NCBI GenBank assembly: GCA_041663565.1
Contig: JBAYMJ010000001.1
Coordinates: 1,259 to 65,258 of the forward strand
Origin: Candidatus Micrarchaeia archaeon
GTDB lineage: Archaea > Micrarchaeota > Micrarchaeia > Norongarragalinales > CAINOH01
DNA length: 64,000 nucleotides
Direction of reading: 5' to 3'
In this document: piece by piece, positions 3,788 to 51,654 of the stretch
How the letters are laid out: the number at the start of each line of letters is the position of its first letter
How positions within the stretch are numbered: position 1 is the first letter of the stretch
The notes under the pieces: generated by a model
What the model was told of the DNA's origin: nothing
What the model saw: only the letters and a program-made list of their open reading frames with translations
Databases searched by the model: none
Made by a program: the position numbers and the translations under genes

Positions 3788-4025
3788 GAACAGGTTTCGT
3801 TTTGGCAGTATAAAGCACTATTGGCCTGCGGCCCTGCAGGCAGTCGGGGGCGATGCCGCACTATTATAAATGGGGTTTTGCACTAAATATTGGTAAGAAA
3901 GTGAAAGGAAACCAAGCCCGCCGAAAGGCGCTTTGTTGTTTTTTGTTTAAGGCAACGGGTAACCGCGGCATCTGCCGTTCCTGTGCCAGTAAAAGTTTTT
4001 GACTAAAAGTAAGGAGTGGTTGAAT

Positions 4026-4745: not shown

Positions 4746-4773
4746 GCAGGAACAGCTTAGAGATAGAGGACTC

Positions 4774-13493: not shown

Positions 13494-13566
13494 GCTCTGA
13501 TAGTGTAGTGGACCAGCATACGGGATTGTCGATCCTGTGACCCGGGTTCGAATCCCGGTCAGGGCG
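13494..13566 (+). tRNA. tRNA-Asp (anticodon GUC)
   Basis: Folded by hand. Acceptor stem GCTCTGA/TCAGGGC; D arm GTGT-AGTGGACCA-GCAT; anticodon stem CGGGA/TCCTG with loop TTGTCGA (GTC); T arm CCGGG-TTCGAAT-CCCGG; discriminator G. No encoded CCA and no intron. Confidence 0.9.
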
Positions 13567-13586
13567 CTTCTTTTTCTTTACAAAAT

Positions 13587-36703: not shown

Positions 36704-36709
36704 TGGAAA

Positions 36710-37339: not shown

Positions 37340-37360
37340 GGGGTGTTCACAAAACGGGCG

Positions 37361-37774
37361 CTAAACCCGGTATACCTGGAGGTGGGACACCCCGCCAATC
37401 CTCTTCGCGCCGGCCTTGGACACGCCAAGGCAGCGGCACGCAAGCTCGACCGACTTCTCGCCGACTATGTTCACGTTGCCGGCTCCGCTCAGGGCGGAAA
37501 TCACGGCCGGTTCGTCCACGACTTCGCCTTCGTAGAACCTGCGGTGCGTCTCAAGGTCAAGAATGAGGCCGTTGGACTCGAACTTCTTCCCAAGGCAATC
37601 CTTGTCGCAGACTGCGACTATTGTTGAAAAGCGCGAGACGTGCGTCTTGAGGTAGAAAGCCGCCTTGGGGGATTTTGCCGAGGCCTTGGAGGGCTTTGAA
37701 GCCGCGACTTTCCTTGCCTTGGCTGACTTTGCCTTGCCTGCGGGCTTTTTCATTGGAACAGCGGCTTTGGCCAA
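37361..37774 (-). CDS. DUF424-like protein with Lys/Ala-rich N-terminal extension
   Basis: The C-terminal ~95 aa (YLKTHVSRFSTIVAVCDKDCLGKKFESNGLILDL...FYEGEVVDEPAVISAL..AGNVNIVGEKSVELA...IGGVSHLQVYRV) resemble the archaeal DUF424 pattern (from memory). The N-terminal 40 aa are a KKPAGKAKSAKARKVAASKPSKASAKSPK histone-H1-like tail. Confidence 0.6.
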   Translation of the reverse strand: MAKAAVPMKKPAGKAKSAKARKVAASKPSKASAKSPKAAFYLKTHVSRFSTIVAVCDKDCLGKKFESNGLILDLETHRRFYEGEVVDEPAVISALSGAGNVNIVGEKSVELACRCLGVSKAGAKRIGGVSHLQVYRV

Positions 37775-37782
37775 AATAAACT

Positions 37783-38268
37783 CTACCTCTTGACGGGTTT
37801 CTTCCCAAGGGCCCGTATCGCCTGCTGCAACCGCGGGTTGTTGGTGTGCACGAGCTTGTAGAAGTCAAACATGTGCCCGAGGACTACTTTGTCCCGCGCG
37901 GTTGCCTTGGTGCCCTTCACCAGCTCGCCAATCACCTCCGAAGCGACCAGGGGTTCCGGCGAGCTTTTGATTGTCTTGGGGGTGTACGCCCCGCTTATGG
38001 CGCCATACCGCTTGTAATCGAACGCGTTCGACTTGTTCTGCTGCGCGCGGACGTTATAGTTGAGCTGGGACGTCTTGACCCGGTGGCGCAAAAAGACGGG
38101 TATGGACTCGTTGAGAAAATGATAGAAACTCTCGCTGCCCTTCGCCTTCTCCGCAAGAACTCCCATTACCTTGTACTGGCTGGCGGGAACCTTGTGCAGG
38201 CCAACCACGCCTTTTACCGTCCTGCTTGCAGACAGTTCTGCCGACGCCACTTGAAATTTTCTTGCCAT
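37783..38268 (-). CDS. hypothetical protein (161 aa)
   Basis: MARKFQVASAELSASRTVKG... 4-nt gap to the upstream gene and 8 nt to the downstream gene. No family recognised. Confidence 0.5.
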   Translation of the reverse strand: MARKFQVASAELSASRTVKGVVGLHKVPASQYKVMGVLAEKAKGSESFYHFLNESIPVFLRHRVKTSQLNYNVRAQQNKSNAFDYKRYGAISGAYTPKTIKSSPEPLVASEVIGELVKGTKATARDKVVLGHMFDFYKLVHTNNPRLQQAIRALGKKPVKR

Positions 38269-38272
38269 GATA

Positions 38273-39784
38273 TCAAACCGCCTTTGCCTTCCTATAGACT
38301 TCCAAAAGCCCCTGCTGCTGGCTGGTCTTCACCCTGCTGCCGGACCTCTTGAGGTAATCAAGCTTTTTTCCTTCCACGCCATTGGACTGAAGGTGCGCAA
38401 CCACGCTCCTTGCAAACGACGGGTAGTTCATGTTCCTGGCAAAGCCCAGGAACGGCTCCTCGTAGTTTGCGAAGCTGTGCTGCGACACGCCGTGGGCCTT
38501 GAGGAAGGCGCGCAATACCAGCTGGTACCCGCTGGGCGAGCCGAGCAACGGCCTGGTTGGCGCCACGTTGAAGGCGGCCTGCCTTGGCGCCGAAGCCAAG
38601 GCGCCCGACCGGTCCTTTCCGACGACCCTCGGGTACACCGTGATGACCTTGCCTGCCAACGCGCCCGGCTGCGGCCTGCGGCCCAAAGCGTAGCCCATCT
38701 GGAGCAAGGCCATCGACGCCAAGAGAGTATTCGCAAGCTTGCCTGCCTTCTTGCCGCCTTTCTTGCCAGTATCCTGCCGCTCGCCTTTCTTCCTGCCCGC
38801 CGCCTTTCCTGCGACATCCTCAACGTCAACATAAGTCGGGACGTCGTGCAGGATCTGGCCGTCGTACTGGCGGTAACCGTCCTGCTGCGAGGGCCATGGG
38901 TGGCCTCCGATTACGTTGCCAGTGCCGTTATTGTTGTTGAAAACCGGGTTGTTGGTAAAGGTGGGGCTGTTGGTGATGGTGACCGGCTGGCCGTGGCCTT
39001 TGAACATCTCGCTGAAGGCCATAAGCTCGTTGATGGTGTAGCTCCTTCCGTTCTCGGGCTGCGGAAGCCCTCCGGGAGATTCGGGCGCCTGCGGCGCGGG
39101 CGCTGCGGGCCTTGCGGCCTCGGCATCCAATTGCTTGGCGCGCTCAACCAAATCGTCCAGCCTGCCACGGTAAAGCATGCTGTTCTTGAGCGAACCATAA
39201 AGGTGCTTTCCCGCATCTATGGGCTTTCCGTGGATTACGAGCGCGGAATTCGTGTAAGCCCGGTTCCTTATGGTCCCCGGCTTGGAGCCTTCGGTGACAA
39301 AAGAAGACATCTCGGGCGAAGTGTAAGCGTCAAGGAGCGCCTCGCGCGCCCTGCTGTCCTTGGAAAGCTCGCCTGCAAGCCACGACGCGCCCTTCTCGCC
39401 AAGCCCCCACGCGCCATGCCGCAGCACGTGCTCGGTAAGCGACTTTATCTGGACCGGAGGCTGGTTGCGTATTATCCTCTGCATCGCGTACTCGTGCAGG
39501 TTCCAGCGCACGCCGTCCCTCTTGGAGTTGAGTGCCGGCACGTCCCACTGCCTGATTGCCTCGGCTGTGAGCTTCGGCCTCGTCCCCAGGCCGCCATCCA
39601 AGCCGGTCCTTGAAGTTATGAACGGCTTCTCCTTTCCATAGGGCTTCCGAAGCAGGTAATTCTTCGCGGACGAAAGCCCGTTTCCAACGTGTGTAAGACC
39701 TGCCCTGACATTTGGAAAAAGCTCCGCCAACATCAATCGCCCTCTATGAATTGCCTTTGGGATATCAATAAACGGAATGGGCAT
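38273..39784 (-). CDS. hypothetical protein (503 aa) with central low-complexity region and a basic/hydrophobic segment
   Basis: MPIPFIDIPKAIHRG... Central NNPVFNNNNGTGN, then KKGERQDTGKKGGKKAGKLANTLLASMALLQMGYALG. The 448-aa + strand ORF 38267..39613 is Arg/Leu/Gly-rich antisense. Confidence 0.55.
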   Translation of the reverse strand: MPIPFIDIPKAIHRGRLMLAELFPNVRAGLTHVGNGLSSAKNYLLRKPYGKEKPFITSRTGLDGGLGTRPKLTAEAIRQWDVPALNSKRDGVRWNLHEYAMQRIIRNQPPVQIKSLTEHVLRHGAWGLGEKGASWLAGELSKDSRAREALLDAYTSPEMSSFVTEGSKPGTIRNRAYTNSALVIHGKPIDAGKHLYGSLKNSMLYRGRLDDLVERAKQLDAEAARPAAPAPQAPESPGGLPQPENGRSYTINELMAFSEMFKGHGQPVTITNSPTFTNNPVFNNNNGTGNVIGGHPWPSQQDGYRQYDGQILHDVPTYVDVEDVAGKAAGRKKGERQDTGKKGGKKAGKLANTLLASMALLQMGYALGRRPQPGALAGKVITVYPRVVGKDRSGALASAPRQAAFNVAPTRPLLGSPSGYQLVLRAFLKAHGVSQHSFANYEEPFLGFARNMNYPSFARSVVAHLQSNGVEGKKLDYLKRSGSRVKTSQQQGLLEVYRKAKAV

Positions 39785-39823
39785 CTTTTTAAGCCTTCAG
39801 CCCGGATTTGGGACGATTTACGA

Positions 39824-40195
39824 CTAATCATCCTTTCGGAACAACCCCTCGAAAGGAATCTTTTCCCCGGACTTGCGCCTCTTTGCGTACTTGATTTCCG
39901 CAAGCCTGCCAAGGCCCTTTTCCGAAGCCACGTCCTCGGCCTTGGACATCGCGTCGCGGCCCGTCGCAGGCTCGTCATCCGGAAGGTTTGAGAACAAAGT
40001 CTTCTGGCCCGCAACCGCGACGACGATAATCAGGACCATTCCGACTACGCCGTAGATTGCCTTCATCGATATGCCGAACACCGAGTTCTTTCCCGAGTCG
40101 CTGTTTGCAAGCATCACTACTGCGGCAATCACAAGAAGAATTAGGAAGACGAACTGGAGGCGACGGGAATTGACCGCCTGCTGCCTTGAAGCCAT
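39824..40195 (-). CDS. small two-TM membrane protein with a charged C-terminal tail
   Basis: TM1 LQFVFLILLVIAAVVMLA; TM2 AIYGVVGMVLIIVVAVAG; tail ...AEIKYAKRRKSGEKIPFEGLFRKDD. Confidence 0.5.
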   Translation of the reverse strand: MASRQQAVNSRRLQFVFLILLVIAAVVMLANSDSGKNSVFGISMKAIYGVVGMVLIIVVAVAGQKTLFSNLPDDEPATGRDAMSKAEDVASEKGLGRLAEIKYAKRRKSGEKIPFEGLFRKDD

Positions 40196-40266
40196 AGGAA
40201 ATAGGAGGGAAAAAGGATAGAATAAGGTTTGCGCCTAGCCGCGCACGCCAAAAAGATTAGGCAGAC

Positions 40267-40842
40267 TCAGGCAGTCGGGCCACGACGCTTGGGCGGCATC
40301 TTGCCCCGTTCAAACTCCTCAGGAGTCATGAACGGCTTGCCACCGGGGGGACGCCTATACAAACCGTCAAAAATTCCGACGAACTTTTTAGGATTGGAAA
40401 GAATAACAGAAGTTACGTTCCGCTCTGAGCTTTCCTTAAGCGTCGCCAATTTTTTTGCAACTACGTCACGCAGGCCGGAACTATAAAAACCGCCTTTCAA
40501 ACGCTCCTTGTTCTGTGCAACTATTTCCGCAAGCTGATTAGCGCGCTGCTGGGGAAGGTCAAAACCGTGCTTGAGGAGCAGGCGGGTAAAAGCCTTCACC
40601 TGCTCAGAATTACGAGTCTCAACAAAACGATCAAAATGGGTGGACACCGCAGTACCGTCAATCTCCTTATCTACGATAGGTTCAGATCGCAGCGCACTAA
40701 TCTCCTGCAACTCATCAGGAGTATAAGCGGGGCGTTCGACTTCTTCCGCCGCCGCAGCCTCGGCGGCCTTAATCTCTTCTACCCGCTTCTTAGCCCCAGG
40801 CTCACGGGCAAGACGCGCAAGAATATCTAATACGTTTCCCAC
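40267..40842 (-). CDS. 191-aa protein, tandem paralog A (unknown family)
   Basis: GTG start at 40842 preceded by GAGGGAGA. (M)GNVLDILARLAREPGAKKRVEEIKAAEAAA...LLLKHGFDLPQQRANQLAEIV...RRPPGGKPFMTPEEFERGKMPPKRRGPTA. Confidence 0.6.
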   Translation of the reverse strand: MGNVLDILARLAREPGAKKRVEEIKAAEAAAAEEVERPAYTPDELQEISALRSEPIVDKEIDGTAVSTHFDRFVETRNSEQVKAFTRLLLKHGFDLPQQRANQLAEIVAQNKERLKGGFYSSGLRDVVAKKLATLKESSERNVTSVILSNPKKFVGIFDGLYRRPPGGKPFMTPEEFERGKMPPKRRGPTA

Positions 40843-40969
40843 AGAAATCTCCCTCTCAACCGCACACGAAAGACTCCAGAACAGAATTCACGACCAACTG
40901 CTCAATAAAGGAGAAATATGCCCCCAGCTATAAATAAAGAAGGGATAAAGAAAAAGAGAAAAGACAAAA

Positions 40970-41545
40970 CTAAGCAGTCGGGCCACGACGCTTGGGCGGC
41001 ATCTTGCCCCGTTCAAACTCCTCAGGAGTCATGAACGGCTTGCCACCGGGGGGGCGGCGGTAAAGGTTCTCAAAAACATCGACAAATTTCTTTGGGTGTG
41101 ATAAGACCACTGCAGTAACATTTCGCTCCGGGCCCTGCTTCTGCACAGCTAACTGTTCTACAATGGGCCGACGAATGCGTATGTTGTAAAAACCGCCTTT
41201 CAAACGATCCCTATTCTGCGCAACTATCTCGGCAAGCTGACTAGCACGTTCCGATGGAAGATCAAAACCATGCTTAAGTAACAAACGAGCGAAAGCCTTA
41301 AGCTGTTCGGGCGAACGCGTGTCAATGTAACGATTAATATGAGAAGTGATTGTCAGCTCTTCAACTTCCTTCTCCGCAATAGGCTCAGACCACAATTTCT
41401 GAATCTCCTTTTCCTCTTCCGAAGTATACGGCGGACGCACGGCATCTTCTTGGGCAGCAGCCTCGGCGGCCTTAATCTCTTCTACCCGCTTCTTAGCCCC
41501 AGGCTCACGGGCAAGACGCGCAAGAATATCTAATACGTTTCCCAC
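40970..41545 (-). CDS. 191-aa protein, tandem paralog B
   Basis: Start trimmed to the GTG at 41545, which has the same RBS and start context as paralog A. The first ~90 nt and last ~80 nt of the CDS are identical to paralog A by eye; the centre is diverged. Confidence 0.6.
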   Translation of the reverse strand: MGNVLDILARLAREPGAKKRVEEIKAAEAAAQEDAVRPPYTSEEEKEIQKLWSEPIAEKEVEELTITSHINRYIDTRSPEQLKAFARLLLKHGFDLPSERASQLAEIVAQNRDRLKGGFYNIRIRRPIVEQLAVQKQGPERNVTAVVLSHPKKFVDVFENLYRRPPGGKPFMTPEEFERGKMPPKRRGPTA

Positions 41546-41555
41546 AGTAATCTCC

Positions 41556-41672
41556 CTCTTAGCCGCACACAAAGGACTCCAGAACAGAATTAACAACTAC
41601 CTGCTCAGTATTCTCACTCACAGGAACGATGCCCTCGACCATGATGCCATAATCATTACAATTAAGGAAACC
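41556..41672 (-). pseudogene. duplicated 3' fragment of the 218-aa gene (42326..42982)
   Basis: Reverse-strand translation gives ...FLNCNDYGIMVEGIVPVSENTEQVVVNSVLESFVCG*, compared with FINCRDYGIMVEGIVPVKEKTEQIVVNSVLESFVCG* at the end of the intact gene. An in-frame stop (TAA) lies just upstream, so it is a remnant carried along by the tandem duplication. Confidence 0.6.
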
Positions 41673-41736
41673 CATTAGTGAGGAATAAGCTTCCGACTAT
41701 AAAAAGAGAGGATAAAGAAAAAGAGAAAAAATAAAA

Positions 41737-42312
41737 CTAGGCCGTTGGACCACGACGCTTGGGCGGCATCTTCCCGTGCTCCCACTCCTCAGGAGTCAAG
41801 AAAGGCTTACCGCCCGGCGGACGGCGGAAAAAATGCTCGAAAAAAATCGTAGAATACTTGCGCGGGTTCGAAAGCACCACAGCAGTGACATTCCGCTCCG
41901 GACCTTTCTTCTGCGCATTAAGTCTGTCAGCAACTATGTCACGCAAACCCGTGCCATGAAAACCGCCCTTCAAATAATCATTCTGCACAACTATCTCAGC
42001 AAGCTGCTTAGCGCGCTGCTGAGGAAGGTCAAAACCGTGCTTGAGAAGCAAACGAGCAAAAGACTTCAACTGCTCACTATTACGAGTCTCAACAAAACGA
42101 TCAAAATGAGACATCACAGTCTTACCATCAATCTCCTTCTCCTCAATAGGCTCAGACCACAACGCACGAACCTCCTGCTCTTCCTCAGGAGTATACGGCG
42201 GACGCACGGCATCTTCCTCTGCCGCGGCTTCAGCAGCGTTCATCTCTTCTACCCGCTTCCTAGCCCCGGGCTCACGGGCAAGACGCGCAAGTATATTTAA
42301 TACGTTTCCCAC
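41737..42312 (-). CDS. 191-aa protein, tandem paralog C
   Basis: Start trimmed to the GTG at 42312 (the ORF-track start at 42363 would overlap the upstream gene). It is the most diverged copy at the nucleotide level, but the protein is colinear with A and B. Confidence 0.6.
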   Translation of the reverse strand: MGNVLNILARLAREPGARKRVEEMNAAEAAAEEDAVRPPYTPEEEQEVRALWSEPIEEKEIDGKTVMSHFDRFVETRNSEQLKSFARLLLKHGFDLPQQRAKQLAEIVVQNDYLKGGFHGTGLRDIVADRLNAQKKGPERNVTAVVLSNPRKYSTIFFEHFFRRPPGGKPFLTPEEWEHGKMPPKRRGPTA

Positions 42313-42325
42313 AGAAATCTCCCTC

Positions 42326-42982
42326 TCAACCGCACACGAAAGACTCCAGAACAGAATTAACAACTATCTGCTCAGTCTTCTCTTTCACAGGAACGATGCC
42401 CTCGACCATGATGCCATAATCCCTGCAATTGATGAAGGCATAAGTAAGGAACAAATCATCGGCGACAAGCGAGGAGGACTGGGTATAATTGATTACATAA
42501 TAGTTATTTCCGCCGAACTTGGCACTGCCGTTCCAGATGTTGTATGCCTTCATGTCATCCTCATTAGGAATCGATTCGACTAAAGCATAATAATCCTTTT
42601 TGCCAAGACTCGAATTGGTCAAGGTAAGGTCAATGACTATGGGCACGTTGGCACTCCCAAGCGCATACAACTGCAACACGCCCGCGTCAAGGCTGTTCGA
42701 AGAAAGGGCATAACCAGCAGGATAGCTCACCTTGAAGCCAAAAGTCGGGTGCGTGTACTCCAAAAGGCGAATCCCAAGCGACTTGTTTAACATATCCATA
42801 TTCGGGGTGCTTGCGGATTGGGATGCTCCGGGCTGGCCAATACTGGGCAGTTTTACAGCGCCGGAAAGGAACAGATAAGCGATGATGGCAAATATGCACA
42901 GGACCAGAAGGAGTTTTCCGTTCCCCTTCGCTGGCTTGTCGTCCCTTCTTGACCGTTCAATGCGCCTTGATCTTTCCGCCAT
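42326..42982 (-). CDS. N-terminally membrane-anchored extracellular protein (218 aa; possibly PsbP/DcrB-like fold)
   Basis: Basic N-terminus MAERSRRIERSRRDDKPAKG, then TM LLLVLCIFAIIAYLFLSGAV, then a beta-rich domain (FGFKVSYPAGYAL...). 11-nt gap after the giant gene. The fold guess is weak. Confidence 0.55.
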   Translation of the reverse strand: MAERSRRIERSRRDDKPAKGNGKLLLVLCIFAIIAYLFLSGAVKLPSIGQPGASQSASTPNMDMLNKSLGIRLLEYTHPTFGFKVSYPAGYALSSNSLDAGVLQLYALGSANVPIVIDLTLTNSSLGKKDYYALVESIPNEDDMKAYNIWNGSAKFGGNNYYVINYTQSSSLVADDLFLTYAFINCRDYGIMVEGIVPVKEKTEQIVVNSVLESFVCG

Positions 42983-42993
42983 CAGAAATCACA

Positions 42994-45900
42994 TTATCCT
43001 GCAATGAAAGTGAACGCCCCGTTGGGCTTCTGCCCTATAAGCGAGCCGATTATGCCCGGGTCAATCTGCGAAGAGCGCCGGTAAACTGGATACTTGGAAG
43101 TCTCAATCGGCTTCGTGTACGAGTTGAACAACGAGGATATGAACCTAAGGTTGTCCTTCTCGTTGTTGTTATTGGTCACGCCGAGGAACAGGGTGTAGCC
43201 GTTGAGGTTGTCAATCTTTTCAGACCTTGCAAGCGCGACGCAAGTAGGCTTGTAAGTGCCCTTCGTGGCGGATGAATACTGCAACGACGGGCAGAAACTC
43301 GAGTCCAACGTGACGCAAGTGCCATCCTTCGCAACAGGTTCCGATACGGACAAACCATTCTGCGCATAGCAAACCCGCGTCATCGAAGGCTCGTTGAACG
43401 CGCCCGGAAGCACCCAGTCATTGAGCGGCTGTGAATACACGATAAAGTGATTGAGCATCTCGGGGTTCAAGGCCGCCTGCGAAGGCCGGAAGTCGCAGTC
43501 AGTCACGAGCATAATCAGCGCCATGCTTGCAACGCTAGCGACTGACCGCGCAATGGTCCACTTGCTCTGAGCCGCAAGAGTTGACGCTTTGGGAGTAGTG
43601 AGAAGGTCATCGGCGGTGCTCTTGGCAACGATATCCTTGATTACTGCTTCTTCGGGAAGCTTGGCTATGTCAACTTTGCTGATTACTTTGGCATCCTGTA
43701 AAACCTCTTGGCCAGTAACTCCTGTCCCAAGGTTCTCCAATTCGGTAAATGCTTTCTGGTAATCTGCAGTCACACCAGGCACCCCAGAAGGGTCAATGTA
43801 GGTGATAACGTTGTCAATTTGAGCTTGAGTATATTTCATTGTAGTTAGTTCGGTCTGAAGGCTCTTTGCAACTTTCTCCGGCAGACTAGTGTCTTTTGCC
43901 GCAGCGGATTCCAAGTTCAACGCCAATATATCCGCGCGAGCCGGAACAATGTCTATTGTGCTTGCAGCGGTCTTAGTAAGTCCGACAGTATTTGACGACA
44001 AGGTATTCTCAACAACGGATGCACCCAGGAACGTCTTGGACGCATCGTAGATTGCCGTATCAGCATTCGAATCTCCGATTGAAGCAAGCTTGGTTAACAC
44101 GGACTTTAGTGCAGATGTCTGTGCGCTTGATTTCCCAGTAGCAGCCGCCTCTGCCTTGGTAATAGCACTCGAAATGTCGCTGGACAACAAACCCTTAGCA
44201 GATAGGCCATCGCGGATCTTCTGCATCAGGAGAACTTTGTCATCGTAATCGGTAAGGGAATTGAACAACGCAGAATACGCGGTTTTTTTCTGGGCATATG
44301 GGGCTGCGATAAGAGCATCCAAAATGGTCATACCAGCTCCGACGGTCAAAGTATCTGAGAACTTCAGTACGGAAGTGCCGGTGCCAGTCAGACCGTTCAA
44401 GATCTTTTCAGCTACAGTCGCATCGCGAGCATATCCTTTCTGCACAAGTAACCTTGCAGCGACTGACCGTTCATTGAACAGCGCTTGGTATGCCGGCTGT
44501 GCCATCACGCCTATGCCAGCCGCCTTTGTCACTGCGCTGGGGCCGCCGCCACTGCCAAGTGCGTAGTTGGCGCCCGCACCCACGATTGCAGCTCCAATCA
44601 GGAGCTTCTGGTTCTTTATCAGGGTCGTTGCAGTGATGGTATTGCCATGACCTACAAGCTCGGCCCTGAGTCCGGCGACCAGCGCCGCTTGCCCTTGCTT
44701 TCCGGTCATAGCGGCAGTAATATCAATTCCGGGCGGCATCAAAAGCAACGCCTGGGAGCTGAGTGCGTTGGTCATCACGTTAGACATTGAGAGGCAGGCA
44801 ATGTTGTTTGCCTTGTAACGCGGCAAATCGACAAGGAGCTGGGTGGTGGTTGAGGTAATCCCTCCGACCAGCGTTGTTATCGCCTGCGCGGACATCACCC
44901 CGGATGAGGCCAGAAGAACGTCAAGCCCGTAAGTAGCGGTAAGGGTCTCGGCAAGTATCGTCTTGCCCTTGTCGAAGCAGTATGCGTTGTCGTCATAGAG
45001 CGTGGCCCAGCGGATGGTGCGGGAGCTGGTCTCGTCGATGCGGAGCGGCCAGCCGTAGCCTGACTCAAGCAGGAGGTCTGCAGTCTTCATGTCAAGCAGA
45101 CTGGACTCGTTGCGGTAGACGCCGATGCGGAACGTAGCAAAGACGTCGAACTTGAGTGCCTTCTCGAATGCGTGCTTAAGCTCGCCTGCACCTTCAGTCT
45201 GGTTGTCGCCGACTATGAGCTCCTGGTCGTTTCCAAGCAAAAGCAGGGAGTTTGCCAGCGTCTCCTTGCAGGAGTCAATCTTCTCAACAGCTATGTCTAT
45301 CTTGACGTCACTCTTGAACTCCGAGGCGCTTGTGAACGACTGGAGGCCGCAAATCTGGGGCTTGGCTGTGACTTTGTACACCCCGCACCCGTCGAACGCG
45401 GGCATCCCTGCCGTGTTGGTCACGGTCCCGAACTGCTCGCTTGCGATGGAGTTGAGGAAGTCGAAGGTCTGCTTCATGTTCACGACCTGCATGACCATCG
45501 TCTTGGAGTATTCGTTGCCGGTTCCGCGCGACTCGGTGCAGATTGCGTCAAGCCTCTTGGTAAGGCCATCGTCGTCCTTTCCAATGTAGTCTATTACCTG
45601 GCGCATGCCGCCCACGAAGCGCGTGTAGGCGGCAACCGACTGGTCGTAAGTGCAGAAGTGAGTTGTGCAGTCGGCAACCGAGGTCACGCCGTAGTTTGCG
45701 TCAGCTGCTGCGGCCTCAGTAGCGGAAGTGACTGCGGGAGTGGCTGTTGCAGTAGGCGAGGGTGATGCGGTTGGCGAAGGTGTCGCGTCCGCAAAGCTTG
45801 CCGATGCGGGTCCGCCTTGCGCTGCGGAGTCGGCAAAGATTGCAACCGCGTTTTCGGCACCGGCTGCGGATGCGGCCTTCACCGCAGCAACTGTAGCGCG

Positions 45901-48900
45901 CTCAAGTGGAAGCATGTCACCCATCGGCGAGGACGAGTACAGGTTGGTGGCGCTGGTCGAATAGACTATTGCGCGGACTGTTGTGACGTTCACCAGGTCG
46001 CCGGACGTGAAGGTGAACGTGAGCATCGCCTGTTTTCCCTGCACGCTTCCGCTTGCGGAAGTGCATTTCACTTCCGCGACTTCGGAGCGCTTCAGGGTCT
46101 CCGGCACTCCGGCGCAGTCAACCACGGAAGCGTCCGAGGTCTTGAAGGACACGCCCACGTCGTTGGGCCGGTTGTTGACTATGAGCAGGGGCCGCTCGTG
46201 GCCGGAGTTCTTGAACGCGAACACGCGCTTCACCCCGGTCTTCACGTCGGTGATTGCCGAGTCGTAGTTCACGAACACGTCCTTGAGGTAGGCGTCGGAG
46301 ATTCCCATGTCGCGGTTCTCGCACTTGCCTTTCACTATCTTGACCTTGACCGAAATCTCGGGCAGGTTCTTTGAGGAGACGTCCACGCCCGAAAGAGTCT
46401 TCGCGGTGAGCTTGAGCGTTCCGTCGTACTCCTTGCTCTTCACGTCGCTCTTGATGCAGCCGTACGAGTCAAGCAGCGAGTCGGGCACCTTGGCCGTTAT
46501 CGTTAGGGCGCTGCAGGCATTGGCCTTGGACGTGGCTATCACGCCGGAGTGCGAGTATTCGCCGCCGAAGTAGACGTTGTCCTTGGTGATTATGCCGAGC
46601 GGGATGTTGTTGGCTGTCGCGGACACGTTCAGCGACTGGGTAGCGGTGTTGGACACGCAGACAGAGCTGTTGGACACTGAGAGCGCGCCGTCGGTGAGGG
46701 TGAACGTGAGCGTGGACGGCTTGACCGAGAGAGCAGAGCCAGTTGTTGCGGTCACGCCCTGGGTGAGCCTGACCTTGCCCGACTCGGCGTCGGTGCAGGC
46801 GCAGGACGTGAATGTGACCTTGTTGCCGGCGTAGATGTTGACAGCAGTGTAGCCGTTGTCATCAGTGACAACCTCAGTTGCCGCGTCGAATGAAATCGCG
46901 GTCGCCGGCGGGAGGGTGTAGCCGTTTCCGGTGACGATTTGCTGGCACGAGCCGAACTTGACTCCGGTGCCGGTGACGTTCTTCTTTTCGGAGAATTGGA
47001 ACGAGACGTCCGCGCCGAAGGTCGCGCTGTACGAGTCCTTTGCGGACTGCGCGCAGTAGGACACCTGCATCTCTGAATCCGAGGGCACGCTTGCGGCCTG
47101 CGCCAAGCCGTCGCGCGCCACGCTGCTGCCGTCCGGGAGCACTATCTTGTTGGCTGCAGGCAGGACTATCGTGGAGTCGTCCTCGGTCTGAATCTCCAAT
47201 GATGAGCAGTCCGGAAGCGCGGCCTCCTTGGTGCCGGACTCGGTGGTGGTAATCTGCGTCCCTGACGGGAGAGTTATCGTCGAGGACTTCGGGATGTTGA
47301 CGCCGGAAGTGCAGGCCGCTGCCGAGCCCTTGACCTTGAAGTCAACGGCCGCGTTTGCAAGCACCTTGACCGTGAAGCCGGACTGGGTGGTGCCGGTTGC
47401 GTCTTCCGCAAACCTGGCGACTGCAAAGCCTATTGGCGCAAGCCCCGAAAGGGACGTCGTTGACACGCCGACCGTGGAGCCTGCGGGGAACGTGACCACG
47501 TCCTCGCTTTGAAGCGTGAACGAGACCGAGCCGTCCGCGTTGTTCGCACGCTCGTAATAGGAATCTATGTAATAGGTGGTGACGTAGGGCAGGGCGAGGG
47601 TGAACTCCTCCTGCGGCTTGATTATCATAGCCATGCCCGGCGATGCGCTCACTGTCGAGCCGGATGGCGCGGTGACGTAGGGCGCGGTCTTGCTGTCTGA
47701 AAGCGAAGCCCCTCCGAACACGACCCGCGTGGAGTCCTTGTTGGGCTCCTGCACAGCAATCGAGCCGTCCGAGTTCTCCTTTCGCAGGGTCTTTGCGGAA
47801 AGGTCCACCTTCATGCCAAGCGGCATCAGGACGTCAACTGCGTTGTCCGGGGTGCAGTCAACTGACGAATCCAAGTTGAGGGTTACGGGAATCTTGCGCT
47901 CGGAGCGTATGCCGTTTATAGAGGCCACCAAAGTGAGGTTGGTGGTGACCTTGCCGTTGTTCTCCATCACGCACAAGGTCTTGCGGTTGGACGGCATCAC
48001 AGCTGTAATCGTGAGGTTCTGCACGTTGGACTGCTGGCTGGTCTCGTCCTCGCCCGCAAAGACGATTTGACCTGACTCGCCGGGGTTGGGGCCAAGCACC
48101 AGGGATGCCGGAGAGAACGAAAGCCAGTCAGTTGAGGAGTCAAGCTGGTAGTTGACCAGGAGGTTGTTGGTGAGGCTGTTGTACACGTGCAGGTCAGTTG
48201 ACGACTGGTTGTCCGCTCCAAGGGACAGCGTGAGCTCAGCAGAGTCCTCCTCGGTCCCCCAGAACTCCTCGAGCGGCTTCTGGACGAACGCGGAGTTGAC
48301 CTTGAAGGGCATTGTGACGCTCTGGCGCGAGCTGCCTGCGCGCGCCTCTATGATTATGCGGCCCGTGAAGTTCTCCGAAAGCGTGCGGGTTGCCTTTGCG
48401 ACGTCAAGCACGCTGTCAAGTATCCACGTGTCGAACTTGACGTCCTGCGTCGCGCCCGCCTCGAGGGTGAAGCTGGATTCCGAAAGGAGCGTGCCGGTGA
48501 TGCGCGGGCTCTTGTCAAGCACTATTGAGGAGCGGACGTTGACCCCGTTCCCCAAAAGGTTGGAAACGGTGATGGTGTCCGAGTTGCCGGCCTTCGAATC
48601 AACGACCAAGTCGAGTATCTGCGTCGGCGAGACCTCGACTATCTTCTTTGCAGTAACTGGAATCGAGCCGTAAAACTGCGCGTAGCCCGTCGCTGTCACC
48701 GTGAAGTCCGCGCTGCCAATCTTGTCGGGGTTGACTCCCTCGACCAGGTACTTGCCGTCCTTGCCTTCGTTCTCGTCGCCCGAACCGTCGGCCTGGTATG
48801 CGGAGTCGCCGAACACGTCGGCCTTGGAGCCTATGGCGATGTGGGCGCCCTCGATGGGAGTGCCGAAGGCGTCGGTGACAAGGAAAGTTACTGCGTTGTC

Positions 48901-51654
48901 AACAAGCGCGGAAACGTATGACGGCGACACGCCCACGTTCAGCTCGTTGTTGGAGGCGGAGAGTATCCTGCCGGAAAGGTCCATGCTGTTGGCCTGCTCG
49001 CCCTGGTAGTCCGCCTCGATGGAAAACGAGAGTGCGTCGGACACGCGCAGGGCCTTGACCTTGAACTCGGCGTCCACGTTGCCTGAATCGACCGAGACGA
49101 GCGCAAGCTGTCCGTCGTCCTGGTCGGTGATGGTCGCATCGCCGGAAGGCGAGCTGCCCGATACTATAGTGGCGGTCTTCTTTGAATTGGAGATTACGCG
49201 GATGTCGTAGGGCCCGTTCTGGGAGATTGACTTCACCGTGAGCGTGAACTCCTCGGGGACCGTTGCCTCGAAGTTCTTGGAATACTCGCCGCGCGTTGAC
49301 GCGACCTTGGCCTCGAGGCACTGGCTGTCAGCGCACACGCCGCCGAATGAGATTGCGTACTTGGTCACGTTCACCGCGGCAAGCTGCTCCTGGCCCGCCT
49401 TGACGCTGTCGTCGGACGGGTCGCGCAGGGTGCCGTTTGCGGTGGTGTATGCGGTGCGGAAGCCAAAGAGCACGGTGCCGTTCTTGACCTGGCGCGTGGT
49501 GACCTGGACGTAGGCCTCCTTGGTGCCAGCGAAGGACGGGTAGGATAGCTCGGCCCACTTGTACTCTATCGAATTGGAAGCGGAGTCGTAGGCGGTCTCG
49601 ACCGAGCCTGACGCGGAAGAGTTCGCGACAGCGGACGACACGCCATAGGAGTCGCCGCCGGAGGTGGAAGCGTCGGCGCCGCCGTCAAACCCCGAGATGT
49701 AAGCGTCAAGCGCGCTCGCGTCGCCTGTTGTAGTGCCCAACCGCACGTGGAGCGCCGCCTTCGAGAACGCCATGCCCGGCGAATTGAGGAGGAACTTCGC
49801 GTTGTACGTGGTGGACGGCTCAAGCGAGGATGCCTTGTTCCCCGAAAGGTCGTACAGCCCGAGGAACACCGCCTTCACGTTCTCGGCAATTGAGCTTGAC
49901 AGGAGCTCGACCTGCACTTCCTTCTCTACGTTGGGCACCACCTGCACCTGCGCGGACGAGTATGCCGAGTAGCCCGTCGCGGCGACTTTGTAGTAGCCCC
50001 AGCCCTCGAGTACGTTTACTGAGCAGATGCCGTTGATTGTGGTGCACGAGCCGGACTCGGTTGTCGATGCGTCGACAACAGCGCCGGTGATTGCCTTGCG
50101 CGAGAACCTGTCGATTACGCGGAACTTGAGAGTGCCCTGCTGCGGCAGGAGCCGCGCGGTGAGCGTGGTGTAGTTCTTCCCCTCCTCCCCGTCTGCCGTG
50201 ACATCCTTTGAAGATGAATACCCGCTCCTGCCCTTTGAGGACGCGAAGGCATACACCGATGAAAGGGGAACGTCGGAGAAATCAACCGCGCCGTCGGAGC
50301 CAGTAGTGCCTTCGGGCAGGCCCAGCGCTCCGGCATTGCCGAAGAGGGCAACTGACGCGCCTGAGATGAGGCCGTCGGACTCGTCAGTCACCTTGACCCT
50401 CACCTTTGCCGCGTTGTCCTTGGTGGACGACGCCAGCACAAGCTTGCAGTCAGCGCCGGCAGTCAGGGCCATCCCAGTTGGGAGGTACTTTGACTTGTAT
50501 GCGGTGACCCAGTAGGTCTCGGTCGGAAGAAGTGAAAATGATGCAATACCGTCCGCCGCGGTCTTTGCGCTCGACTGCTTCTCGTCATTAAGATAGAGGT
50601 TCACAGTTGCGACGCCCGCCTTGTTTCCCGCCTCGTCAACTATGGAGCACGAAGTCCTTATCGAGCCGTCCGAGCCGGGCTTTGAAAGCGCAATCTTCAC
50701 CGTCTTGAACGCGGGGTCCGCAGTGTAATCAAGCACCGCCTCGTCATAGCCGTCAAGTGACGCCATGAACCGGAACTTGCCGCCCTTCGCAAGCTTGACC
50801 GTCGCCTTGCCGTCGGCGTCCGCAGTCAGGCTGCGCAGAAGAAGGCCCGACTCGGTGATGACTCTGATTGTCGCGCCGCCCAAGGACGCGTTTGCAGCAG
50901 AAGTGGAAAGCTGGACTATGACGTCAACTGTAGTCTCGTCCGCAACGGGATAAAGGTAAATTGAAATCGGCGCCGGGTCCTCGGAGCCCACCTGCAATAC
51001 GGTAGAGTTCTGCGTGTAGCCCTCGGCGTTTGCGATTATCGTGTAGGTGGCCGACTTGGGAAGCGAGAATGTCACGCTCGTGCCCTGCTTCGAGGCTACG
51101 ACGGACAGGAGCGAGTTCTTGACCGAGACCGCGGGGATTGCCGCGCCCTTGACGCCGTCCACGTTCACCGTGATGGTGGCGTTCGCGTTGATGGGCTGCT
51201 CCTCAAGCTTGATTGTCTGCGCGCGCGTCTGAGACTCGGAAATGTCAACTGTCGAGAACTTGGCCTTGTAGTTTGCCGAGCTCACCGAGACGTTGTACGC
51301 GGCAAGGGGAACGTGCGCAAAGACCGCTACCCCATTCGAGTCCGAAAGGTTCTGGAAGGACTGCGTGTGGTCCGCAAGGCTGGTTATCATCACTTCCGCG
51401 CCGGAAATCTCGACTCCGGTAAGGTCGCGGACGTTGATTGTGATGGTGCCCGTCGCGGGGGCCATGTTGGAATAAGCAAGGTAGCCTACTGCGGCGATGA
51501 CGATGATGAGAAGCCCTAGGAAGAACGGAGCGGGCGGGATGCCGTTCTGCTCAAGCGAATCCGACGCGCCGCGCAGCGGCAGGCCCTTCTCGTCGGTCCA
51601 GTCGAGAAACTCCTGCCACCTTGTAGAAAGCCCCTCAAGGAAGTCATCGAGCAT
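42994..51654 (-). CDS. giant surface protein 1 (2886 aa): N-terminal TM anchor, about six CarboxypepD_reg/PEGA-like repeats, large beta-rich body, PT linker, distinct C-terminal ~900-aa module
   Basis: Single uninterrupted 8.66-kb ORF. N-terminus ...EQNGIPPAPFFLGLLIIVIAAVGYLAY. The repeats look like TGTITINVRDLTGVEISGAEVMITS...SDSNGVAVFAHVPLAAYNVSVSSANY. PT linker ATPSPTASPSPTATATPAVTS. The antisense ORFs are all short. Confidence 0.8.
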   Translation of the reverse strand: MLDDFLEGLSTRWQEFLDWTDEKGLPLRGASDSLEQNGIPPAPFFLGLLIIVIAAVGYLAYSNMAPATGTITINVRDLTGVEISGAEVMITSLADHTQSFQNLSDSNGVAVFAHVPLAAYNVSVSSANYKAKFSTVDISESQTRAQTIKLEEQPINANATITVNVDGVKGAAIPAVSVKNSLLSVVASKQGTSVTFSLPKSATYTIIANAEGYTQNSTVLQVGSEDPAPISIYLYPVADETTVDVIVQLSTSAANASLGGATIRVITESGLLLRSLTADADGKATVKLAKGGKFRFMASLDGYDEAVLDYTADPAFKTVKIALSKPGSDGSIRTSCSIVDEAGNKAGVATVNLYLNDEKQSSAKTAADGIASFSLLPTETYWVTAYKSKYLPTGMALTAGADCKLVLASSTKDNAAKVRVKVTDESDGLISGASVALFGNAGALGLPEGTTGSDGAVDFSDVPLSSVYAFASSKGRSGYSSSKDVTADGEEGKNYTTLTARLLPQQGTLKFRVIDRFSRKAITGAVVDASTTESGSCTTINGICSVNVLEGWGYYKVAATGYSAYSSAQVQVVPNVEKEVQVELLSSSIAENVKAVFLGLYDLSGNKASSLEPSTTYNAKFLLNSPGMAFSKAALHVRLGTTTGDASALDAYISGFDGGADASTSGGDSYGVSSAVANSSASGSVETAYDSASNSIEYKWAELSYPSFAGTKEAYVQVTTRQVKNGTVLFGFRTAYTTANGTLRDPSDDSVKAGQEQLAAVNVTKYAISFGGVCADSQCLEAKVASTRGEYSKNFEATVPEEFTLTVKSISQNGPYDIRVISNSKKTATIVSGSSPSGDATITDQDDGQLALVSVDSGNVDAEFKVKALRVSDALSFSIEADYQGEQANSMDLSGRILSASNNELNVGVSPSYVSALVDNAVTFLVTDAFGTPIEGAHIAIGSKADVFGDSAYQADGSGDENEGKDGKYLVEGVNPDKIGSADFTVTATGYAQFYGSIPVTAKKIVEVSPTQILDLVVDSKAGNSDTITVSNLLGNGVNVRSSIVLDKSPRITGTLLSESSFTLEAGATQDVKFDTWILDSVLDVAKATRTLSENFTGRIIIEARAGSSRQSVTMPFKVNSAFVQKPLEEFWGTEEDSAELTLSLGADNQSSTDLHVYNSLTNNLLVNYQLDSSTDWLSFSPASLVLGPNPGESGQIVFAGEDETSQQSNVQNLTITAVMPSNRKTLCVMENNGKVTTNLTLVASINGIRSERKIPVTLNLDSSVDCTPDNAVDVLMPLGMKVDLSAKTLRKENSDGSIAVQEPNKDSTRVVFGGASLSDSKTAPYVTAPSGSTVSASPGMAMIIKPQEEFTLALPYVTTYYIDSYYERANNADGSVSFTLQSEDVVTFPAGSTVGVSTTSLSGLAPIGFAVARFAEDATGTTQSGFTVKVLANAAVDFKVKGSAAACTSGVNIPKSSTITLPSGTQITTTESGTKEAALPDCSSLEIQTEDDSTIVLPAANKIVLPDGSSVARDGLAQAASVPSDSEMQVSYCAQSAKDSYSATFGADVSFQFSEKKNVTGTGVKFGSCQQIVTGNGYTLPPATAISFDAATEVVTDDNGYTAVNIYAGNKVTFTSCACTDAESGKVRLTQGVTATTGSALSVKPSTLTFTLTDGALSVSNSSVCVSNTATQSLNVSATANNIPLGIITKDNVYFGGEYSHSGVIATSKANACSALTITAKVPDSLLDSYGCIKSDVKSKEYDGTLKLTAKTLSGVDVSSKNLPEISVKVKIVKGKCENRDMGISDAYLKDVFVNYDSAITDVKTGVKRVFAFKNSGHERPLLIVNNRPNDVGVSFKTSDASVVDCAGVPETLKRSEVAEVKCTSASGSVQGKQAMLTFTFTSGDLVNVTTVRAIVYSTSATNLYSSSPMGDMLPLERATVAAVKAASAAGAENAVAIFADSAAQGGPASASFADATPSPTASPSPTATATPAVTSATEAAAADANYGVTSVADCTTHFCTYDQSVAAYTRFVGGMRQVIDYIGKDDDGLTKRLDAICTESRGTGNEYSKTMVMQVVNMKQTFDFLNSIASEQFGTVTNTAGMPAFDGCGVYKVTAKPQICGLQSFTSASEFKSDVKIDIAVEKIDSCKETLANSLLLLGNDQELIVGDNQTEGAGELKHAFEKALKFDVFATFRIGVYRNESSLLDMKTADLLLESGYGWPLRIDETSSRTIRWATLYDDNAYCFDKGKTILAETLTATYGLDVLLASSGVMSAQAITTLVGGITSTTTQLLVDLPRYKANNIACLSMSNVMTNALSSQALLLMPPGIDITAAMTGKQGQAALVAGLRAELVGHGNTITATTLIKNQKLLIGAAIVGAGANYALGSGGGPSAVTKAAGIGVMAQPAYQALFNERSVAARLLVQKGYARDATVAEKILNGLTGTGTSVLKFSDTLTVGAGMTILDALIAAPYAQKKTAYSALFNSLTDYDDKVLLMQKIRDGLSAKGLLSSDISSAITKAEAAATGKSSAQTSALKSVLTKLASIGDSNADTAIYDASKTFLGASVVENTLSSNTVGLTKTAASTIDIVPARADILALNLESAAAKDTSLPEKVAKSLQTELTTMKYTQAQIDNVITYIDPSGVPGVTADYQKAFTELENLGTGVTGQEVLQDAKVISKVDIAKLPEEAVIKDIVAKSTADDLLTTPKASTLAAQSKWTIARSVASVASMALIMLVTDCDFRPSQAALNPEMLNHFIVYSQPLNDWVLPGAFNEPSMTRVCYAQNGLSVSEPVAKDGTCVTLDSSFCPSLQYSSATKGTYKPTCVALARSEKIDNLNGYTLFLGVTNNNNEKDNLRFISSLFNSYTKPIETSKYPVYRRSSQIDPGIIGSLIGQKPNGAFTFIAG

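Follow-up and report, generated by a model that had tools for sequence, protein, structure and literature searches.

A candidate replacement-type hypervariable surface cassette at the end of a giant gene in Candidatus Micrarchaeia

How can a giant archaeal gene keep most of its length almost unchanged between closely related genomes while its last third is exchanged together with the small genes that follow it? This question is raised by a 64,000-nucleotide stretch (hereafter the window) of contig JBAYMJ010000001.1 of a Candidatus Micrarchaeia archaeon (assembly GCA_041663565.1), in which a gene of 2886 codons, giant 1, is followed by a series of small genes on the same strand. The original prediction, made from the letters of the window, had described a lower-GC mosaic joining the 3' end of giant 1 to these genes at 40267-44700 and had likened it to the polymorphic toxin/immunity loci of bacteria. 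Based on the comparison of the window with related loci, we lean towards a different explanation, namely a replacement-type hypervariable cell-surface or membrane recognition cassette located at a fixed chromosomal position in a clade of Micrarchaeia. The cassette would consist of the C-terminal ~1050 residues of giant 1, p218, a slot carrying 0-5 genes for soluble proteins of ~190-210 amino acids (aa), usually p123, and p503. In the window, the genes in question are the following (giant 1 as given in the list of open reading frames, ORFs; TM, transmembrane).

42994..51654, minus strand: giant 1, 2886 aa
42326..42982, minus strand: p218, 218 aa, membrane-anchored, separated from giant 1 by an 11-nt gap
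41737..42312, minus strand: p191a, first of three 191-aa paralogues, soluble and all-alpha
40970..41545, minus strand: p191b, second 191-aa paralogue
40267..40842, minus strand: p191c, third 191-aa paralogue
39824..40195, minus strand: p123, two-TM protein with a charged C-terminal tail of ~60 aa (hydropathy)
38273..39784, minus strand: p503, soluble, final gene of the block replaced between lineages C and D (see below)

Block replacement and synteny between lineages

Related loci were found via the sites encoding the 191-aa family, via metagenome scans and via matches to p218 and to the C-terminal part of giant 1 (the tip), and syntenic loci from seven lineages were obtained. The window is lineage W; lineage A includes L001-L005, L015, and L016, lineage B includes L006, L007, L009, and L013, lineage C includes L011, L012, and L014, lineage D includes L023-L025, and lineage E includes L026-L029. 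The 191-aa family gave no match in the GTDB representative genomes, and a scan of the latter with an alignment of the head domain of the tip picked out two genomes, those of the uncultured Candidatus Micrarchaeota AlinenSediments_bin-2061 (L030) and of Candidatus Micrarchaeia SO_2017_LW3_70 (L031).

The exchange was seen on comparing, by blastn, the metagenome contigs L014 (1.218 Mb, lineage C) and L024 (1.227 Mb, lineage D). Positions 1-6133 of L014, which extend from upstream of giant 1 to about codon 1800-1830 of this gene, are 97.9% identical to L024, and the remaining 7 kb downstream are 99.4% identical, whereas the middle 6.4 kb show no DNA similarity between the two contigs, except for 175 nt inside the p503 homologue. 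The right breakpoint (L014 position 12574) corresponds to the end of the p503 homologue. The giant 1 proteins of C and D are 97-100% identical over residues 1-1800; in the alignment they diverge after '...QGKCENRD', and beyond that point their identity is 23-47%. The exchange affects ~1050 codons at the end of giant 1 and all the genes from the p218 to the p503 homologue, including the slot gene (which belongs to the 191-aa family in C and encodes a 209-aa protein in D) and p123 (which D lacks), so that the last third of giant 1 and four to six small genes are exchanged. The trunks of the C and D genes differ at a synonymous divergence (dS) of only 0.042, with a ratio of nonsynonymous to synonymous divergence (dN/dS) of 0.07. 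In the window, the left breakpoint has the following equivalent.

46165..46308, minus strand: equivalent of the C/D left breakpoint, codons ~1783-1830 of giant 1

The block in the window equivalent to the one exchanged between C and D therefore extends from ~38273 to 46300, and the originally proposed limits of 40267-44700 were too narrow. The idea that the trunk might be conserved while the tip and the downstream genes are swapped was borne out by the alignment of the orthologous loci of C and D, in which the swap took place as a block. Alternative, dissimilar contents are present at the same position between conserved syntenic flanks, as in replacement islands. These comparisons show that homologous recombination between related Micrarchaeia exchanges the block as a whole or in pieces, and that it is anchored by two conserved regions, the trunk and the genes downstream of p503.

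In all the lineages, the same gene order is found: giant 3, giant 2, giant 1, p218, the slot, p123 (which is not present everywhere), p503, a gene encoding a DUF424 protein and, further on, NTP_transferase, glpX and DeoC genes. As this order is kept everywhere, the locus is chromosomal and has been inherited in place. The intergenic gaps across the genes of the locus range from 4 to 191 nt. The p191c and p218 proteins are 100% identical to WCX64_00215 and WCX64_00230, respectively, both of which belong to a metagenome-assembled genome of Candidatus Micrarchaeia archaeon at NCBI. The glpX products of W are 88% identical to those of each of lineages A, B, and D, and those of A and B are 94% identical to each other. 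Several of the lineages co-occur in the same JGI samples. The genes flanking the block in the window are listed below.

59094 to beyond 64000, minus strand: giant 3 (ORF list)
51774-59006, minus strand: giant 2, 2410 aa (ORF list)
downstream of p503, minus strand: p161, the DUF424 protein, p209 and p534 (p534, p209, and p161 within 35099-38268)

The NTP_transferase, glpX, DeoC-type aldolase and uvrABC genes are located beyond p534. Giant 2 is uniformly 71-89% identical between W and D and has a uniform GC content at third codon positions (GC3), except for a dip in identity to 40-60% at residues 1501-1700, around a Cys-rich/Pro-Thr (PT) linker.

Composition, mosaicism and age of the alleles

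In 400-nt windows, the GC content at 40.0-44.4 kb is 0.47-0.54; the body of giant 1 (45.6-51.6 kb) has 0.58-0.64, and the window as a whole ~0.58. The nine 100-codon windows lying inside 40267-44750 have a mean GC3 of 0.53, and a comparison set of 159 such windows from more than 30 other genes has a GC3 of 0.775 (sd 0.097); the compositional shift suspected from hand counts is therefore significant (Mann-Whitney p = 1.6e-6). It is confined to synonymous third positions, GC1 and GC2 being nearly unchanged. Inside giant 1, GC3 is 0.72-0.87 up to codon ~2250 (0.69-0.88 in the 100-codon windows of the trunk), then falls to 0.65, 0.51, and 0.47, and returns to 0.73 at codons 2701-2850. The dip in this gene thus covers codons ~2300-2700 (43555-44757), and the last ~190 codons (42997-43554) have a GC3 of ~0.71. 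The figures originally given for the low GC of the end of giant 1 and of the 191-aa genes were about right, but the dip does not occupy the whole of the last ~570 codons, and the 63-65% GC reported at 44.9 kb was in fact 0.55-0.58 when computed. Likewise, of the single compositional unit that had been proposed, the dip is real, but the unit is interrupted by the last ~190 codons of giant 1. Among the small genes, GC3 amounts to 0.58 in p218, 0.49-0.52 in the 191-aa genes, 0.70 in p123, and 0.76 in p503; the last two are not low-GC and yet belong to the exchangeable block, as the comparison of the lineages indicates. Giants 2 and 3 have a uniform GC3 of 0.78-0.89.

All six cassette types examined show the GC3 dip at an equivalent position, and in every lineage it overlaps part of the exchangeable block. 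The cassette has an atypical composition and carries no mobility genes, two features by which flexible genomic islands are recognized. The low GC3 might be that of a pool of genes which the lineages share and pass on horizontally, and not that of the resident genome; in such a pool, the lineages contributing alleles would differ in genomic GC, as illustrated by the L031 locus (~0.50 GC throughout).

The alleles of the tip are mosaics. Using the residue numbers of W, A and C are 88% identical at residues 2151-2400, where W-C and W-A identities are 66% and 67% and B shares 36-40% with the others. At residues 2401-2620, it is W and C that are most alike (82%), A-C and W-A identities being 56% and 54% and those of B with the others 33-40%. 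At residues 2701-2886, A-C identity is again the higher (79%, versus 68% for W-C). The closest relative of C alternates between A and W over six successive segments, with column bootstrap values of 907-1000 out of 1000, and this change of nearest relative within the tip points to recombination. Breaks in identity are located at codons ~1790, ~1920-1990, ~2150, ~2400, ~2620, and ~2700, depending on the pair compared: B breaks at about codon 2150, and D, E, and L030 in the linker region. Since the breaks occur at differing positions, there is no single junction.

Within the allele classes, where the sequences are close enough for it to be measured, dN/dS is 0.05-0.15; between classes dS is saturated, as compared with ~0.7 in the trunk. 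Taken together, the low dN/dS and saturated dS indicate that the alleles are old, functional and shuffled by recombination, and that they are neither decaying nor hypermutating. Ancient, selectively maintained allele classes of a multi-gene block thus exist at this locus.

Architecture of the tip, the partner proteins and the neighbouring genes

Giant 1 is collinear with its orthologues over its full length. It begins with a conserved segment of ~40 aa followed by a TM helix at aa 42-60 (hydropathy). Residues 1-41 (51532-51654) carry the pattern W..FL.W..E.GLP...LE..GIP, are acidic and devoid of Cys, and are kept across the whole giant family. The trunk contains five stretches matching the Pfam CarboxypepD_reg family (E = 3.5e-29) and weaker Ig-like matches. 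The successive parts of the protein are encoded as follows.

46285..51654, minus strand: conserved trunk (codons 1 to ~1790); identity 73-93% from lineage to lineage, 97-100% for C versus D
45685..45786, minus strand: Pro/Thr/Ala-rich linker, codons 1957-1990, variable in length and sequence in every lineage
44980..45684, minus strand: head domain of the tip, codons 1991-2225, with the motif C-x-T-x-F-C-T and six invariant cysteines
44485..44979, minus strand: Gly/Ala/Ser-rich hydrophobic helices, codons 2226-2390, candidate membrane-embedded segments
43570..44484, minus strand: hypervariable helical region, codons 2391-2695, core of the GC3 dip and main mosaic zone
43501..43569, minus strand: last hydrophobic helix, codons 2696-2718, followed by D-C-D-F-R-P, hydropathy 1.68
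42997..43500, minus strand: beta-rich C-terminal end domain, codons 2719-2886 (~170 aa), with conserved cysteines

An exhaustive HMMER search with the 897-aa tip among 1.84e9 representative proteins gave 19 matches, all of which are C-terminal parts of proteins of 2700-3450 aa or fragments of such proteins. The full-length members of this family share a single plan: N-terminal segment and TM helix, trunk, linker, head, helices, last helix and end domain. The head is the best-conserved part of the tip and also the part that is matched in the distant giants of 2700-3450 aa. Hydropathy peaks at tip positions ~250-300 and ~365 recur in 14 family members and reach 2.15 in protein P0026. The hypervariable region (GC3 0.46-0.53) is 17-56% identical between allele classes and 82% identical between W and C; its 305 residues include no cysteine and no N-x-S/T sequon, as compared with 0.95 sequons per 100 aa in the trunk. 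In most members of the family, K/R residues lie before the last helix and D/E residues after it. The end domain, in which P739, C803, C820, and F858 are nearly invariant, is more conserved than the region preceding it, with identities of 51-79% within cassette type I (W, A, B, C) and 29-33% between type I and D. The absence from giants 2 and 3 of any counterpart to the ~900 aa located after the PT linker, which had been noted previously, was confirmed: BLASTP finds nothing, and the tip-family profile matches giant 1 with E = 2e-284, whereas the E-values for giants 2 and 3 are 0.5 or above. These two proteins terminate in other, Cys-rich modules.

An AlphaFold2 model of the tip, built on 12 sequences, was of low overall confidence (mean pLDDT, the predicted local distance difference test, 57; predicted TM-score, pTM, 0.54). 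It includes an alpha/beta head (pLDDT 70-84), helices at positions 238-670, a helix at 713-731, and the beta-rich end domain. Nothing significant was found on searching the PDB with this model using Foldseek (best E 0.21), and a PDB sequence profile search with the tip gave only weak matches to designed helical repeat proteins. The head and end domains may lie outside the cell and the hypervariable helical region toward the cytoplasm, a tentative arrangement suggested by the lack of cysteines and sequons at codons 2391-2695 and by the K/R-then-D/E pattern around the last helix. In L031 (positions 1-5380), the giant 1 orthologue is interrupted within the helical variable region and reads as two ORFs (proteins P0017 and P0028, of 1375+ and 422 aa), which could be due to a frameshift, a pseudogene or an assembly error.

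The p218 protein has a basic N-terminus, a TM helix at aa 25-43, and an ectodomain of ~170 aa with two conserved cysteines, ending in ...VVNSVLESF(V/E)CG. Its family amounts to just 7 clusters among 5.8e9 proteins, and a homologue is present in every cassette type. The identities (W-A 69%, W-C 71%, A-C 87%, B versus the others 47-48%, W-D 31%, D-E 58%) rank in the same way as those of the flanking tip segments. The possibility that p218 might be homologous to the C-terminal domain of the giant, and thus be an orphan tip, was rejected on the basis of BLAST and of an hhalign probability of 0.2%.

The slot located behind p218 varies in both the number and the family of its genes. The 191-aa family is present in one copy in C, three in W, two to four in the strains of A, and five in B; a 209-aa family is present in one copy in D and in two in E, those of E being 28-30% identical to that of D; a different protein of 190 aa occurs in L030, and in L031 the slot, between p218 and p123, is empty. 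No significant similarity was detected between the 191-aa, 209-aa, and L030 190-aa families using hmmsearch or hhalign (probability 0.4-4%). By eye, the three families share a P-E/K-x-L/F...H-G/x-F...P pattern, and they may be extremely diverged descendants of one ancestor. The proteins of all three are predicted to have neither TM helices nor signal peptides. The 191-aa family forms 14 clusters among 5.8e9 proteins, all of them unnamed, with a mean column identity of 69% and 39 invariant columns; its AlphaFold2 model (pLDDT 78.6, pTM 0.72) is a confident all-alpha fold of 11 helices, without any significant match in the PDB or BFVD.

The three 191-aa genes of the window are 71-81% identical at the DNA level. 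The protein p191a (W_1) has orthologues in C (C_1, 78%), B (B_3, 69-72%) and A (A_1, 67%); the closest relatives of p191b (W_2) are A_4 (72%) and B09_b (71%), its neighbours in the window being no closer (70-71%), and the best cross-lineage relative of p191c (W_3) is B_2 (64%). The fact that several lineages have these subtypes in common indicates that the copies in the window are old paralogues rather than the products of a recent triplication. Tandem Repeats Finder detected nothing at 39-52 kb, because the 191-aa units are too diverged and their period too long. Two remnants of the 3' end of p218 are present between the copies.

41549..41654, minus strand: p218 3'-end remnant before p191b, 106 nt, 92% identical to 42316-42421
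40843..40888, minus strand: shorter p218 3'-end remnant before p191c, 46 nt, 100% identical to 42313-42358

Both of them include the stop codon and a GAGGGAG ribosome-binding site, and the translation of the first reads ...NDYGIMVEGIVPV..VVNSVLESFVCG up to the stop. The 46-nt junction has either been homogenized or is under strong selection, for example as a translation initiation site or a recombination substrate. In lineage A, a second p218-like gene (L002 6518-7015; L015 11252-11761) is a near-identical copy which, as called, has no clear N-terminal anchor, and in lineage E a second one (L026 6235-6900) is a diverged 221-aa copy with a TM helix. These second copies lie in or after the slot arrays, which indicates that the duplication unit is a pair consisting of p218 and a slot gene; together with the remnants, the near-intact second copy in A suggests that the array has grown by unequal crossing-over of p218-p191 units.

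The p123 protein is 64-86% identical wherever it is present, and is absent from D and E (a tblastn search of L024 gave no match). A Pfam match to TrbC/VirB2 (E ~0.01) is below the cut-off and was taken to reflect the two-TM composition. The p503 proteins are 27-58% identical between lineages and have no match in Pfam, NCBIfam or the PDB.

Several observations were made on the genes around the cassette. The fast-evolving proteins p534, p209, and p161 are 25-47%, 32-53%, and 22-35% identical between lineages, respectively; since the corresponding region is 99.4% identical between C and D at the DNA level, it was not part of the exchange between these two lineages. Comparing W with D (59094-63998 versus L024 1-2420), giant 3 has only 28-41% identity over its C-terminal ~700 residues, and may be another giant of the variable kind; its GC3 stays high throughout (0.79-0.89), so that variability there is not coupled to low GC. 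The N-terminus of giant 2 has the ...E.NGIP..P motif right before its TM helix, in common with the giant family, which suggests that the conserved segment preceding the membrane might be a common cytoplasmic docking or export element. Elsewhere in the window, a 324-aa gene at 15191-16165 (minus strand) encodes a Schlafen/AlbA_2 domain (Pfam E = 2.2e-6). Its GC (0.385) and GC3 (0.28) are well below those of the rest of the window; located in a lower-GC stretch at 13-17 kb, 1.6 kb from the sole tRNA gene of the window, it looks like a small foreign insertion, possibly related to defence. At 16543-17634 (minus strand), a 363-aa protein carries the C-terminal domain of the [FeFe]-hydrogenase large subunit (E = 1.4e-78) and the small-subunit domain, the N-terminal ferredoxin-like domains being apparently missing. 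These hydrogenase domains are unexpected in a reduced DPANN genome.

The explanations weighed and the known systems

A strain-specific recognition module would be expected to combine a conserved chromosomal position with co-varying, anciently diverged alleles, and this is the pattern observed. Several very old allele classes would circulate among related lineages, moved either whole or piecewise, and frequency-dependent selection would keep many of them alive. The tip, p218, and p123 at the membrane and the slot proteins and p503 in the cytoplasm might form one co-adapted complex, which would sit at the membrane end of the giant surface protein and give each strain a distinct surface or contact specificity, for example in host attachment or recognition, kin recognition or escape from viruses using the giant protein as their receptor. 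A role at the membrane is supported by the TM anchors of giant 1, p218, and p123, by the invariant cysteines of the head and end domains, and by the conserved helices of the tip. DPANN archaea depend on physical contact with their hosts, and the molecules setting partner specificity are not known. The present locus is a precise candidate for this function, in that near-identical genomes (98-99%) differ by the swap of a 6.4-kb allele; if the cassette does set contact specificity, the cassette type should predict the host range, the aggregation partners or the sensitivity to viruses. The 191-aa family, with its confident all-alpha fold, p218, and the tip module are also added here to the protein families without detectable relatives.

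Several points weigh against the recognition cassette. Every protein of the cassette is without a recognizable family or fold, so that its function is a matter of inference, and the loci represent only about seven lineages from a handful of metagenomes, with C and D coming from different samples. The most variable stretch (codons ~2391-2695) may face the cytoplasm, which would fit poorly with direct recognition of the surface of another cell; together with the soluble p191 family and p503, a stretch so placed would point instead to variable binding of an intracellular partner. The topology proposed for the tip is itself tentative (mean pLDDT of the model, 57). Neutral recombination and relaxed constraint could produce part of the pattern. 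Lastly, p161, p209, and p534 are very divergent and lie outside the C/D block, yet they have a normal GC3 (0.73-0.76); divergence and low GC are thus not strictly coupled, and the cause of the low GC3 stays a matter of interpretation.

That the region might have no special function at all, being weakly constrained and weakly expressed, with AT-biased mutation lowering its GC3 and neutral recombination creating the mosaics, is an improbable explanation. The low-GC3 part of giant 1 is indeed also its least conserved part, the neighbouring lineage-specific p161, p209, and p534 are likewise highly divergent, and the cassette proteins have no assignable function. But the low dN/dS places the tip under purifying selection, the 191-aa family is well conserved in spite of its low GC3, and the equally divergent p503, p161, and p534 keep a GC3 of 0.76. 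Nor does the replacement of a full 6.4-kb allele at a dS of 0.04 resemble gradual decay, and the 46-nt junctions before p191c and p191a are 100% identical next to genes that are 71-81% identical. The recent integration of foreign DNA specific to this genome (a virus, plasmid or integrative element) is very improbable: it would account for the atypical composition and for the weak, sub-threshold TrbC/VirB2 pilin matches of p123, but is largely refuted by synteny, as the same genes, order, GC dip and chromosomal site are found in all the related lineages. In addition, the block begins inside a gene, neither an integrase, a transposase nor flanking repeats were found in or beside it, the sole tRNA gene of the window (Asp, 13494-13567, plus strand) lies at a distance of 26 kb, and no resemblance to viral protein structures was detected. 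Diversity-generating retroelements (DGRs), which diversify the C-terminal regions of surface proteins, are abundant in DPANN archaea, and targeted hypermutation by such an element might therefore be envisaged. It is scarcely credible here, since no template/variable repeat pair was found in 39.5-46 kb and no reverse transcriptase among the neighbouring genes scanned; moreover, the variable stretch measures ~1.6 kb rather than ~0.1 kb, it differs by indels and by the exchange of whole segments, and dN/dS is low.

The organization of the locus lends some substance to the toxin/immunity hypothesis put forward originally, in which the variable tip would be a contact-delivered toxin or membrane-inserting effector whose fold is unrecognized and the slot proteins would be arrays of immunity proteins. 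The layout resembles that of a polymorphic toxin system (PTS), with a conserved trunk, a swapped C-terminal region, and small downstream genes changing family with the tip class; the slot genes are arranged in tandem, their copy number varies, and in front of each stands what is left of the 3' end of the upstream gene, as in orphan modules; membrane insertion is conceivable for the conserved hydrophobic helices of the tip, and the slot proteins have neither signal peptides nor TM helices, in keeping with cytoplasmic immunity proteins. However, no toxin or immunity domain was detected in the tips of W, B, D, and E or in the three slot families on searching Pfam, NCBIfam, PADLOC, PDB profiles and Foldseek, nor did the 191-aa protein, the tip, p503 or p218 give anything significant in the PDB, BFVD, Pfam, NCBIfam or PADLOC, in line with the statement made at the outset that no such fold was recognizable. 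The tips are all homologous and collinear, built from the same five parts, and their far C-terminal end (last ~170 aa) is more conserved than the middle. There are several breakpoints and no single pre-toxin junction motif; no orphan tips exist, tblastn searches with six tip alleles in the window and all the loci having matched only the main gene; the remnants in the arrays derive from p218 and not from the giant, and the gene right after the giant is p218, a conserved membrane-anchored protein rather than a variable soluble one. The 191-aa subtypes are 55-78% identical across lineages whose tips share only 36-40% identity, and L031 has a tip and an empty slot. A toxin/immunity function is thus not borne out and seems unlikely, though it keeps some weight because the organization, the differing slot families and the membrane-type helices would all fit it. 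Even less likely, in our opinion, is that giant 1 might be a contact-dependent delivery device of a DPANN symbiont, the tip of which would deliver a hypervariable domain into the partner. The N-terminus would be held in the micrarchaeal membrane, the Ig-like trunk of ~1900 residues would bridge the gap to the partner cell, and the hydrophobic helices of the C-terminal module would insert into the partner membrane, so that the hypervariable helical domain would be exposed or delivered on the cytoplasmic side of the partner; the slot proteins (191, 209, and 190 aa) and p503 would serve as allele-specific chaperones or neutralizers in the producer. What speaks for this idea is the conserved membrane-type helices of the tip, the charge pattern, which puts the variable region on the cytoplasmic side of whichever membrane holds it, and the partner genes co-varying with the tip class. 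If it were true, the locus would represent either the archaeal equivalent of contact-dependent inhibition or a system of host manipulation, with entirely new folds, as well as a candidate for the machinery joining DPANN cells to their hosts.

When the locus is set beside known systems, its resemblance to CdiA/CdiI and Rhs lies in the large conserved N-terminal part and the exchangeable C-terminal part, in the small downstream genes changing with the tip class, and in the arrays carrying remnants of the 3' end of an upstream gene. It differs from them in having no toxin domain, no junction motif (VENN, PxxxxDPxGL), no orphan tips and no known secretion system, and in that its tips are homologous with a conserved extreme C-terminus and its first downstream gene encodes a conserved membrane protein. 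Phage tail-fibre genes consist of a conserved shaft and a mosaic specificity tip, often of lower GC, accompanied by one or more small co-varying downstream genes for assembly chaperones, which are needed for the folding or completion of the tip. The present locus likewise combines a conserved N-terminal part, a mosaic C-terminus and small co-varying downstream genes; unlike them, it is a cellular chromosomal locus without phage genes, its tip has membrane-type helices, and its tip and small proteins are structurally unlike viral proteins.

Among symbionts with small genomes, consecutive giant surface-protein genes have been described in Apilactobacillus kunkeei (PMC12863079), and large strain-specific surface proteins, for which a role in host contact was proposed, in the cultivated micrarchaeon Mia14 (PMC5498576). 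According to these descriptions, the likeness consists in consecutive genes for very large extracellular proteins taking up a sizeable share of a small symbiont genome and in the proposed role in cell-cell interactions; the replacement of a tip together with its partner genes as a cassette does not feature in the parts of these accounts considered here. Replacement flexible genomic islands for cell-envelope structures (Lopez-Perez et al., 2014; PMC4033161) share with the present locus a fixed position between syntenic flanks, dissimilar versions in near-identical genomes, homologous recombination in the flanks, a lower GC and cell-surface products. The cases described are mostly glycosylation, O-antigen, and flagellar clusters of free-living bacteria, whereas here the left border lies inside a giant structural gene, so that a single protein belongs partly to the core and partly to the island.

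The closest described analogue is the VARTIG system of Thermococcales, in which an Ig-domain protein with a recombining, hypervariable C-terminus is followed by unique sets of small downstream genes (Makarova et al., 2021; PMC8416519). Its authors likened it to polymorphic toxin systems, proposed roles in conflict, innate immunity or self/non-self recognition, and reported no counterparts outside Thermococcales (PMC8416519); the view that an archaeal analogue of such loci would be new was therefore overstated. Both systems are archaeal and involve a large Ig-like surface protein, the C-terminus of which is hypervariable through recombination between genomes, together with variable small genes downstream, a PTS-like layout without any recognizable toxin and the same candidate functions. 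The differences are that the protein families are unrelated (VARTIG is arCOG07710, with CARDB-type Ig domains, and no Pfam CARDB match is present here), that giant 1 has 2886 aa as compared with roughly 500-1000 aa, and that it ends in ...NGAFTFIAG and not with the C-terminal DNNxxxGG. In addition, the variable part here is a helical and hydrophobic module and not a distal Ig domain, the genes that follow are unrelated to the C-terminus of the giant instead of being small versions of it, and the host is a DPANN symbiont with a genome of ~1.2 Mb. The VARTIG type of organization is thus extended beyond Thermococcales and to an unrelated protein family, which suggests that the combination of a hypervariable giant protein and variable downstream genes might be a recurrent archaeal solution.

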